From: Escherichia coli
GTDB lineage: Bacteria > Pseudomonadota > Gammaproteobacteria > Enterobacterales > Enterobacteriaceae
Reading direction: 5' to 3' (one strand)
DNA length: 64,000 bases
NCBI RefSeq assembly: GCF_046105845.1
Contig: NZ_CP151004.1
Shown here piece by piece: positions 12,070 to 43,872 of the stretch. Positions within the stretch are counted from its first letter, which is position 1, and each line of letters begins with the position of its first letter. The notes under the pieces were generated by a model that saw only the letters and a program-made list of their open reading frames with translations, was not told the DNA's origin and searched no databases. A program made the position numbers and the translations under genes.

Positions 12070-12098
12070 GTGCCGGATGCGAACATCCGGCACTTTCG
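12070..12098. terminator. Hairpin between convergent ybaK and ushA
   Basis: Perfect palindrome gtgccggatg-cgaa-catccggcac. Confidence 0.5.
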
Positions 12099-22961: not shown

Positions 22962-22995
22962 AAAAATGCCGGATGACACGAAGGTCATCCGGCAT
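22962..22995 (-). terminator. Intrinsic terminator after htpG
   Basis: On the minus strand, hairpin GCCGGATGAC...GTCATCCGGC followed by a U-tract. Confidence 0.6.
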
Positions 22996-29887: not shown

Positions 29888-29925
29888 AAAATAAAGGGCG
29901 GCATCACTGTCGCCCTTTATTGTCC

Positions 29926-33415: not shown

Positions 33416-34063
33416 TTATTCGGTAATGGCAGGGTTACGAAGCGTGGGACACAGGAGATACATCTCCAGTAAGATGGCGACGTAATCGCGGGCTTCTTTT
33501 TTAAGATCAAAAGATTGCGGGGCAAAGAGCCAGTTTTCCATCAGGCCGGAAATATAGCCGCGCATAATAATTGCTGCCCGACGCGTCATTAAATCCGCAG
33601 GCAACATTTTCGCTTCAATACAATGTTTTAACGTTTGTTCTATACGGTCATAACTTTCCAGACAGAGATTACGTTGTGCCTGTTGCACAACAGCCATTTC
33701 TCCGACAAATTCGCATTTGTGGAATATAATCTCCATCAATAATCGACGCCGTTCTTCTGTCACCGTGGATTCAAGAACATGAATTAATATCTCTCTTAAT
33801 ACTGAGAGTGGATCGCCAGGGAATTTTGCCTGATACTCAAGCTCTAGTTCACCAATATTGGATTCTGACAGTTCCCAGATCTCACTGAACAAATCCGACT
33901 TGTCTTTAAAATGCCAGTAGATTGCACCGCGCGTAACGCCAGCTGCTTTTGCAATCTCGCCCAGCGAGGTGGATGATACCCCCTGCTGTGAGAAAAGACG
34001 TAGAGCCACATCGAGGATGTGTTGGCGCGTTTCTTGCGCTTCTTGTTTGGTTTTTCGTGCCAT
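33416..34063 (-). CDS. acrR: TetR-family repressor of acrAB
   Basis: 215-aa ORF, divergent from acrA. Confidence 0.96.
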
Positions 34064-34091
34064 ATGTTCGTGAATTTACAGGCGTTAGATT

Positions 34092-34115
34092 TACATACAT
34101 TTGTGAATGTATGTA
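34092..34115. promoter_or_regulatory. AcrR operator palindrome in the acrR-acrA divergent promoter region
   Basis: 24-bp palindrome TACATACATTTGTGAATGTATGTA. Confidence 0.8.
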
Positions 34116-34204
34116 CCATAGCACGACGATAATATAAACGCAGCAATGGGTTTATTAACTTTTGACCATTGACCAATTTGAAATCGGACACTCGAGGTTT
34201 ACAT

Positions 34205-35398
34205 ATGAACAAAAACAGAGGGTTTACGCCTCTGGCGGTCGTTCTGATGCTCTCAGGCAGCTTAGCCCTAACAGGATGTGACGACAAACAGGCCCAACAA
34301 GGTGGCCAGCAGATGCCCGCCGTTGGCGTAGTAACAGTCAAAACTGAACCTCTGCAGATCACAACCGAGCTTCCGGGTCGCACCAGTGCCTACCGGATCG
34401 CAGAAGTTCGTCCTCAAGTTAGCGGGATTATCCTGAAGCGTAATTTCAAAGAAGGTAGCGACATCGAAGCAGGTGTCTCTCTCTATCAGATTGATCCTGC
34501 GACCTATCAGGCGACATACGACAGCGCGAAAGGCGATCTGGCGAAAGCCCAGGCTGCAGCCAATATCGCGCAATTGACGGTGAATCGTTATCAGAAATTG
34601 CTCGGTACTCAGTACATCAGTAAGCAAGAGTACGATCAGGCTCTGGCTGATGCGCAACAGGCGAATGCTGCGGTCACTGCGGCGAAAGCTGCCGTTGAAA
34701 CTGCGCGGATCAATCTGGCTTACACCAAAGTCACCTCTCCGATTAGCGGTCGCATTGGTAAGTCGAACGTGACAGAAGGCGCATTGGTACAGAACGGTCA
34801 GGCGACTGCGCTGGCAACCGTGCAGCAACTTGATCCGATCTACGTTGATGTGACCCAGTCCAGCAACGACTTCCTGCGCCTGAAACAGGAGCTGGCAAAT
34901 GGCACGCTGAAACAAGAGAACGGCAAAGCCAAAGTGTCGCTGATCACCAGTGACGGCATTAAGTTCCCGCAGGACGGTACGCTGGAATTCTCTGACGTTA
35001 CCGTTGATCAGACCACCGGGTCTATCACCCTACGCGCTATCTTCCCGAACCCGGATCACACTCTGCTGCCGGGTATGTTCGTGCGCGCACGTCTGGAAGA
35101 AGGGCTTAATCCAAACGCTATTTTAGTCCCGCAACAGGGCGTAACCCGTACGCCGCGTGGCGATGCCACCGTACTGGTAGTTGGCGCGGATGACAAAGTG
35201 GAAACCCGTCCGATCGTTGCAAGCCAGGCTATTGGCGATAAGTGGCTGGTGACAGAAGGTCTGAAAGCAGGCGATCGCGTAGTAATAAGTGGGCTGCAGA
35301 AAGTGCGTCCTGGTGTCCAGGTAAAAGCACAAGAAGTTACCGCTGATAATAACCAGCAAGCCGCAAGCGGTGCTCAGCCTGAACAGTCCAAGTCTTAA
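34205..35398 (+). CDS. acrA: Multidrug efflux membrane fusion lipoprotein AcrA
   Basis: ORF trimmed to MNKNRGFTPLAVVLMLSGSLALTGC... (397 aa) with lipobox. Confidence 0.97.
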   Translation: MNKNRGFTPLAVVLMLSGSLALTGCDDKQAQQGGQQMPAVGVVTVKTEPLQITTELPGRTSAYRIAEVRPQVSGIILKRNFKEGSDIEAGVSLYQIDPATYQATYDSAKGDLAKAQAAANIAQLTVNRYQKLLGTQYISKQEYDQALADAQQANAAVTAAKAAVETARINLAYTKVTSPISGRIGKSNVTEGALVQNGQATALATVQQLDPIYVDVTQSSNDFLRLKQELANGTLKQENGKAKVSLITSDGIKFPQDGTLEFSDVTVDQTTGSITLRAIFPNPDHTLLPGMFVRARLEEGLNPNAILVPQQGVTRTPRGDATVLVVGADDKVETRPIVASQAIGDKWLVTEGLKAGDRVVISGLQKVRPGVQVKAQEVTADNNQQAASGAQPEQSKS

Positions 35399-35417: not shown

Positions 35418-38570
<3,153 letters not shown>

Positions 38571-43452: not shown

Positions 43453-43842
43453 ATGCTGGTTTCTTGCGCAATGCGACTTCACTCGGGCGTTTTTCCAGAT
43501 TATGCTGAAAAATTACCTCAGGAAGAAAAGATGGAAAAAGAAGATTCATTTCCCCAACGCGTCTGGCAAATCGTCGCCGCTATTCCCGAAGGCTATGTCA
43601 CCACTTACGGTGATGTGGCGAAACTGGCAGGATCGCCCCGCGCCGCGCGCCAGGTGGGCGGTGTGTTAAAGCGTCTCCCTGAAGGCAGCACCTTGCCCTG
43701 GCATCGGGTGGTTAATCGCCACGGCACAATTTCGCTAACCGGACCGGATTTACAGCGTCAACGACAGGCATTACTGGCAGAAGGTGTGATGGTATCGGGA
43801 AGCGGGCAAATCGACTTGCAGCGTTATCGCTGGAACTACTAA
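43453..43842 (+). CDS. atl: Alkyltransferase-like DNA base-flipping protein Atl (YbaZ)
   Basis: ORF trimmed to MLVSCAMRLHSGVF... (129 aa). Confidence 0.88.
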   Translation: MLVSCAMRLHSGVFPDYAEKLPQEEKMEKEDSFPQRVWQIVAAIPEGYVTTYGDVAKLAGSPRAARQVGGVLKRLPEGSTLPWHRVVNRHGTISLTGPDLQRQRQALLAEGVMVSGSGQIDLQRYRWNY

Positions 43843-43872
43843 CCCTCTCCGGGCGGAGAGGGTTAACTGCGC

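Follow-up and report, generated by a model that had tools for sequence, protein, structure and literature searches.

The AcrR operator between acrR and acrA of Escherichia coli: an intact, widely conserved site and a possible two-dimer register

Introduction

Among the intrinsic multidrug efflux pumps of Escherichia coli, AcrAB-TolC is the main one, and it is recognised that drug resistance can rise when repression by AcrR is lost. The repressor is a named example of the type I members of the TetR family, which are found with a divergent target (PMC6790063). Its operator in the acrAB promoter goes back to Su, Rutherford and Yu (2007), as cited in PMC10597343 and PMC9769551, and has been described as two 10-bp inverted repeats, 4 bp apart (PMC10597343). 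Purified AcrR shifts a fragment of the acrAB promoter (EMSA) and is released from the DNA by ethidium, putrescine, cadaverine and spermidine; moreover, an acrAB reporter is induced by deletion of acrR, and autoregulation of acrR was reported (PMC9769551).

Three kinds of described systems are available for comparison. The Tet operator and its repressor TetR, the textbook case to which the original prediction referred, resemble the AcrR system in the divergent repressor gene, in the inverted-repeat operator, which for AcrR too is predicted to lie over the promoter, and in the release by a ligand, but in tetO a single dimer occupies a core of 15 bp, with a spacing of about 3 bp within the site, whereas the AcrR site has a length of 24 bp and is probably occupied by two dimers. 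The operators of QacR (IR1), CgmR, CprB and SlmA, which take up two dimers, resemble the AcrR site in the length of the repeat; for AcrR, two dimers have been suggested, and a 4-bp spacing would hold within each of its putative dimer sites. In such two-dimer complexes of the TetR family the angle between the dimers amounts to 130-145 degrees and the spacing within a dimer site to 4 bp (PMC6018408). The AcrR repeat differs from that of QacR in its total length (24 versus 28 bp) and in its central segment (4 versus 6 bp). Finally, for MtrR of Neisseria gonorrhoeae a consensus was derived from structures, MCRTRCR-N4-YGYAYGK, which is bound by one dimer (PMC8053128), and the DNA contacts seen in the crystal structures are made by T11, T43, R44, G45, Y48, W49 and H50 (PMC8053128, PDB 7ju3 and related entries).

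Here, we compare with these systems the inverted repeat that lies between acrR and acrA in a stretch of 64 kb from an E. coli chromosome, in the following called the window. The added value is small: the fixation of the site across Enterobacterales is documented, and a reading register borrowed from the MtrR-DNA structures is put forward, which is testable.

Results and Discussion

Setting, sequence and identity of the site

The repeat is located in a gap of 141 bp, which separates acrR (33416-34063, minus strand) from the divergently transcribed acrA (34205-35398, plus strand). The intact ORF of acrR encodes a TetR-family repressor of 215 amino acids with the Pfam domains TetR_N (PF00440, 1.2e-19) and TetR_C_2 (PF08361, 2.3e-53), which matches the solved AcrR structures PDB 2qop (5e-140) and 3bcg. 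The first gene of the repressed operon, acrA, encodes the periplasmic adaptor and is followed by acrB (35421-38570, plus strand) encoding the RND (resistance-nodulation-division) pump subunit with the Pfam domain ACR_tran; beyond acrR the gene mscK is found. The names acrR, acrA and acrB were taken from the annotation of matching E. coli records and from Pfam. Two features of a TetR-family repressor with a divergent target, the TetR N-terminal helix-turn-helix and a gap within about 200 bp, are present here, and ORFs, annotation of the matching records and Pfam agree with the original prediction, which had positioned the site between divergent acrR and acrAB.

The 24-mer TACATACATTTGTGAATGTATGTA occupies positions 34092-34115 (K-12 485709-485732), exactly where it had been predicted, and its distance to the start codons is 28 bp for acrR and 89 bp for acrA. 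Comparison with its own reverse complement revealed an inverted repeat of the architecture 10 + 4 + 10, to which no strand is assigned: the left arm TACATACATT (34092-34101) and the right arm AATGTATGTA (34106-34115), corresponding to positions 1-10 and 15-24 of the 24-mer, are symmetric, and between them lies the non-symmetric spacer TGTG (34102-34105). As this spacer is not self-complementary, only 20 of the 24 positions are symmetric, and the description as a perfect 24-bp palindrome had to be corrected. The symmetry ends at 34092 and 34115 and does not extend outwards.

The inverted repeat exceeds what is expected by chance. When the 141-bp intergenic region was shuffled 20,000 times, only 38 of the shuffled sequences yielded any repeat with perfect arms of 10 bp and a spacer of at most 10 bp, and TACATACATTTGTGAATGTATGTA is present in a single copy within the 64-kb window even if three mismatches are permitted, with none of 100 shuffles containing a match. 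The whole window contains 12 repeats of this class versus 0.78 expected, and those besides the operator are mostly G+C-rich. They include the repeats at 12070-12093 and 22966-22995, which belong to the GCCGGATG...CATCCGGC types, those at 29891-29920 and 43840-43865 and several more, and one is positioned directly 3' of the mscK stop codon; these remaining repeats look like REP elements and terminators.

Letter for letter, the 24-mer of the window agrees with the AcrR-binding site published for the acrAB promoter (PMC9769551, PMC10597343), and it shares with the published operator the position between acrR and acrA as well as the 141-bp intergenic sequence. This identity, the acrR/acrA context, the intact AcrR, the conservation of the site described below and the published binding and derepression all speak for the AcrR operator that had been predicted, and we consider it almost certain that this inverted repeat of 24 bp serves as the operator of AcrR. 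The AcrR operator of acrAB is already known, and it is intact and ordinary in this window. AcrR, encoded 28 bp away on the opposite strand, binds to the operator via its N-terminal helix-turn-helix; in this position it should exclude RNA polymerase and lower the transcription of acrAB, and it probably also reduces the divergent transcription of its own gene. Binding of ligands such as ethidium, putrescine and cadaverine to the C-terminal domain releases AcrR from the operator, and MarA, SoxS and Rob act from the marbox, which is situated 27 bp upstream.

Comparison with K-12 and the E. coli population

The window was compared with E. coli K-12 MG1655 over the segment between the stop codon of acrR and the start codon of acrA. 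Six base differences were detected, all of them within acrR, and the 141-bp intergenic region is the same as in MG1655. Relative to the K-12 system with its published operator, differences are found only in proteins: AcrR carries the exchanges T213I and N214T (codons 213-214, 33423-33434) and no others, both at the extreme C-terminus and outside the two Pfam domains, and AcrB carries solely H596N; the AcrA protein is that of K-12. T213I and N214T of AcrR have been reported in fluoroquinolone-resistant isolates, always beside other substitutions of the lineage type, and a literature search for a functional test of these two exchanges gave no result. Residue R45 of AcrR, which is aligned to the essential arginine of MtrR, is intact; a mutation at this position is reportedly treated in one paper together with ciprofloxacin resistance. 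With respect to mutations that might derepress acrAB, which the original prediction had suggested to look for in the vicinity, no deviation from the wild type was seen in the operator, anywhere else in the intergenic region or in the part of AcrR that binds DNA, and therefore nothing in the window predicts a derepression of acrAB. The result is useful as a negative one, with a wild-type operator in wild-type surroundings and no new biology.

The strains 042, 118UI and others carry the 1 kb surrounding the site with 100% identity, and this stretch was found in 5423 of 5426 complete genomes. Of the 5423 complete E. coli genomes with the 141-bp region, 5419 show an identity of at least 99%, and the identity was 100% in 38 out of 40 rows taken at even intervals from the genome ranking.

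In 43 of the 5423 matching genomes the 1-kb acrR region is not covered to 80% in one piece; judged from their sequences, these genomes are candidates for a disruption of acrR by insertion or deletion. Two matches to the 1-kb region are located on plasmids. A particular case is the chicken isolate E. coli Z1323CEC0008 (L123, NZ_CP148461.1), in which an IS481-family element of about 1.1 kb is inserted at the positions corresponding to 34085-34090 of the window, that is between marbox/acrR and the -35 hexamer, with a 6-bp duplication TTAGAT. Operator and acrAB are intact on one side of the element and acrR lies on the other, and the insertion may uncouple acrR from its promoter.

Conservation across Enterobacterales

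Orthologous loci were sampled by means of a degenerate pattern representing the 5' end of acrR (first 20 bases), with one genome per species and without selection on the operator. Because it served as anchor pattern, the stretch 34044-34063 is conserved by construction. The scan gave at least 120 hits, and among the matches listed about 80 encode an AcrR homologue with an identity of 98% to 37%. About 40 hits were discarded as unrelated, since they derived from outside Enterobacterales or represented short chance ORFs; L041 and L007 are two of these and do not represent envR loci. The divergent acrA start could be placed for 76 loci, which together with the window make up the 77 loci among the matches listed that are evaluated here. 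They are phylogenetically related to one another and stem from Escherichia, Citrobacter, Enterobacter, Klebsiella, Serratia, Yersinia, Erwinia, Pantoea, Dickeya, Edwardsiella, Photorhabdus, Xenorhabdus, Providencia, Morganella and Arsenophonus, and conservation is expressed as the share of these loci bearing the base of the window. The identity of AcrR within the 77 loci among the matches listed goes down to 40%, with 48% or more in all but one locus.

Across these 77 loci among the matches listed, the arms of the operator are the most conserved part of the acrR-acrA intergenic region. Mean conservation is 0.994 for the left arm (34092-34101) and 0.94 for the right arm (34106-34115), compared to 0.695 for the spacer (34102-34105), 0.57 for the segment between acrR and the site (34064-34087) and 0.70 for the remaining intergenic positions (34064-34204 without 34088-34123). 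The arms have zero to two mismatches in 75 of the 77 loci among the matches listed, and the operator is found at a distance of 28 bp from the acrR ATG in 62 and of 27-29 bp in 71 of them. The recognition helix of AcrR (12 residues) is present in 75 of 76 orthologues among the matches listed.

The conservation of the operator is asymmetric and the spacer is not free at 34104-34105: all 77 loci among the matches listed have G at 34105 and all but one (76/77) a pyrimidine at 34104, whereas 34102 and 34103 vary freely. In the commonest operator variant among these loci after that of E. coli, the spacer reads TATG, with a change from G to A at the equivalent of 34103 and unchanged arms; it occurs in the close Escherichia relatives L042, L111 and L008 (labelled Escherichia coli/E. 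albertii). As for the arms, variation among the listed loci is nearly restricted to the acrA-proximal one, mainly in the form of A-to-T exchanges at 34106 and 34111 in Photorhabdus, Xenorhabdus, Providencia and Morganella; hardly any variation is seen in the acrR-proximal arm, with which the inferred -35 hexamer overlaps. The 28 bp at 34064-34091 vary in sequence, yet their length is fixed at 28 bp in 62 of the 77 loci among the matches listed, which suggests a constraint on the spacing or phasing from the marbox to the -35 hexamer.

Promoter elements around the operator

In a promoter scan of 33900-34300, the sole sigma-70 match on the plus strand was TTTACA-18-TACCAT, which brackets the operator. 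The inferred -35 hexamer of acrAB, TTTACA (34090-34095, plus strand), overlaps the left arm by 4 bp, and the inferred -10 hexamer, TACCAT (34114-34119, plus strand), overlaps the last 2 bp of the right arm. Position by position, conservation in the 77 loci among the matches listed is 0.87, 0.99, 1.0, 1.0, 1.0 and 1.0 for TTTACA, and 1.0, 0.97, 0.73, 0.77, 0.99 and 0.99 for TACCAT, which is thus conserved as TAnnAT. As far as can be judged from sequence, this is the pattern expected of real hexamers, and the predicted location of the operator over the acrAB promoter gains support from these conserved putative elements on either side of the site. Since the operator fills the promoter spacer and overlaps both hexamers, bound AcrR would block RNA polymerase directly. 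The implied start of acrAB transcription lies near 34126, 79 nt upstream of the acrA ATG; its equivalent in K-12 is position 485698, in agreement with what we take to be the database start site for acrAp. Mapped transcription starts of acrAB or acrR were not found in a literature search, in which a paper on Yersinia offered predicted elements only.

Upstream of the operator, at a distance of 27 bp, lies the marbox/soxbox ATGGCACGAAAAACCAAACA (34045-34064, minus strand; -160 to -141 relative to the acrA ATG), a site for the activators MarA, SoxS, Rob and RamA which overlaps the acrR start codon. In Salmonella, the identical 20-mer was shown to be the site of RamA, located there at -161 to -142 of acrA (PMC2527123).

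The block CCATAGCA (34116-34123) just outside the operator is conserved to 0.73-0.99 in the loci among the matches listed. Within it, positions 34118-34123 reach 0.90-0.99 in the 77 loci among the matches listed, for which no other explanation was found than a candidate promoter element of acrR: TGcTATGGT (34115-34123, minus strand, reading from 34123 to 34115) might, with low confidence, represent an extended -10 element of acrR, which would stand face to face with the -10 hexamer of acrAB. The acrR promoter offered by the scan on the minus strand (34158-34129), composed of TTAATA (34158-34153) with TATATT or TATTAT, was rejected, as its -35 element is unconserved (0.12-0.58 in the loci among the matches listed).

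Reading of the operator by AcrR

AcrR can be aligned with N. gonorrhoeae MtrR (sequence of PDB 6of0, identical) without gaps over 207 residues with 35% identity, residue n of AcrR corresponding to n-1 of MtrR. All seven equivalents of the residues contacting DNA in MtrR, namely T12, T44, R45, G46, Y49, W50 and H51 of AcrR, are identical. The similarity extends to the DNA: the half-sites ACATACA (34093-34099) and TGTATGT (34108-34114) of the AcrR operator each agree with the MtrR half-site consensus in 7 of 7 positions, and together in 14 of 14, at a distance of N8. While the half-sites bound by the one MtrR dimer are 4 bp apart, the perfect half-sites of the AcrR operator are thus 8 bp apart and have imperfect inner partners at N4. 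Two inferred dimer sites result from this pairing. Site A, ACATACA-N4-TGAATGT (34093-34110, plus strand), agrees with the MtrR consensus in 13 of 14 positions and includes the YG at 34104-34105; site B, ACATTTG-N4-TGTATGT (34097-34114, plus strand), with an offset of 4 bp from site A, agrees in 12 of 14 and is without an inner YpG in E. coli. Within the loci among the matches listed, the register of site A shows zero or one mismatch in 76 of 77, and that of site B one to three mismatches in 76 of 77, site B being less conserved. Across the window the MtrR consensus was hit four times with at most one mismatch versus 2.4 expected; as this is chance level, the register is founded on context and conservation and not on statistics.

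On this basis, we tentatively propose that the operator may consist of two overlapping MtrR-like sites of 18 bp, 34093-34110 and its weaker mirror 34097-34114, each of which would accommodate one AcrR dimer, so that the two dimers would sit on different faces of the helix. The site closer to acrR, of the form ACATACA-N4-YGWATGT, would be the primary and evolutionarily fixed one, and the YG at 34104-34105 would be the YpG step contacted by the inner arginine R45, which would render the "spacer" a part of the recognition site. Two such registers would explain both the invariant YG and the asymmetric conservation of the operator. The offset of 4 bp corresponds to about 137 degrees, which is inside the range of 130-145 degrees reported for two-dimer complexes. 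If true, this arrangement gives a concrete structural register for AcrR, which in the PDB entries searched was present only without DNA, no AcrR-DNA structure being among them.

According to the classical TetR picture, a single AcrR dimer would be expected instead, with one monomer on each 10-bp arm and the 4 bp in between as a passive spacer, and MtrR, the closest relative with a DNA complex, indeed binds as one dimer. We consider this improbable for AcrR. The perfect half-sites are 8 and not 4 bp apart, and with half-site centres at a distance of 15 bp compared to 11 bp for MtrR a single dimer, whose recognition helices are about 34-37 Å apart, is too short. A spacer that is merely passive is at odds with the invariant G34105 and the pyrimidine at 34104 in 76 of the 77 loci among the matches listed, and binding of AcrR as a dimer of dimers has been suggested in the literature (PMC10597343).

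Other regulators and hairpin formation

The site could also mainly be the target of another regulator, such as the paralogue EnvR/AcrS or OmpR, with AcrR binding being secondary. EnvR is said to bind to the same site as AcrR (PMC6790063), and for Yersinia a putative OmpR site has been described that overlaps with that of AcrR. Sharing of the site with EnvR would, however, add to the role of AcrR and not replace it, and binding of AcrR as well as acrR-dependent derepression have been demonstrated (PMC9769551). Furthermore, the site keeps its distance of 27-29 bp to acrR in 71 of the 77 loci among the matches listed, and the recognition helix of AcrR is conserved alongside it, which makes a mainly foreign use of the site very improbable.

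Selection of the repeat as a nucleic-acid hairpin, be it an RNA stem-loop in the acrR leader or a DNA cruciform controlling transcription or mRNA stability, is very improbable: the minus-strand RNA forms a stem of 10 bp closed by a loop of 4 nt (-9.2 kcal/mol, z-score -3.08, no shuffle folding as well), but any inverted repeat folds well by its nature, the stem is not followed by a T-run, no Rfam family matches the repeat, and all 26 arm changes in 23 distinct operator variants (77 loci among the matches listed) are one-sided with none compensated, which argues for a protein site with independent constraint on each half-site. A structured RNA element and an intrinsic terminator were rejected for the same three reasons, i.e., the missing compensation, Rfam match and T-run. 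The Rfam search covered 33900-34400, including the operator and the acrA leader, and gave no match for this region. In the acrA leader, the stretches 34137-34153 and 34178-34201 are conserved in places to 0.7-1.0 across the Enterobacterales loci among the matches listed, and these conserved parts of the 5' untranslated region include AAACGCAGCAATGGGTTT and a GGA-bearing stretch upstream of the GAGG ribosome-binding site.
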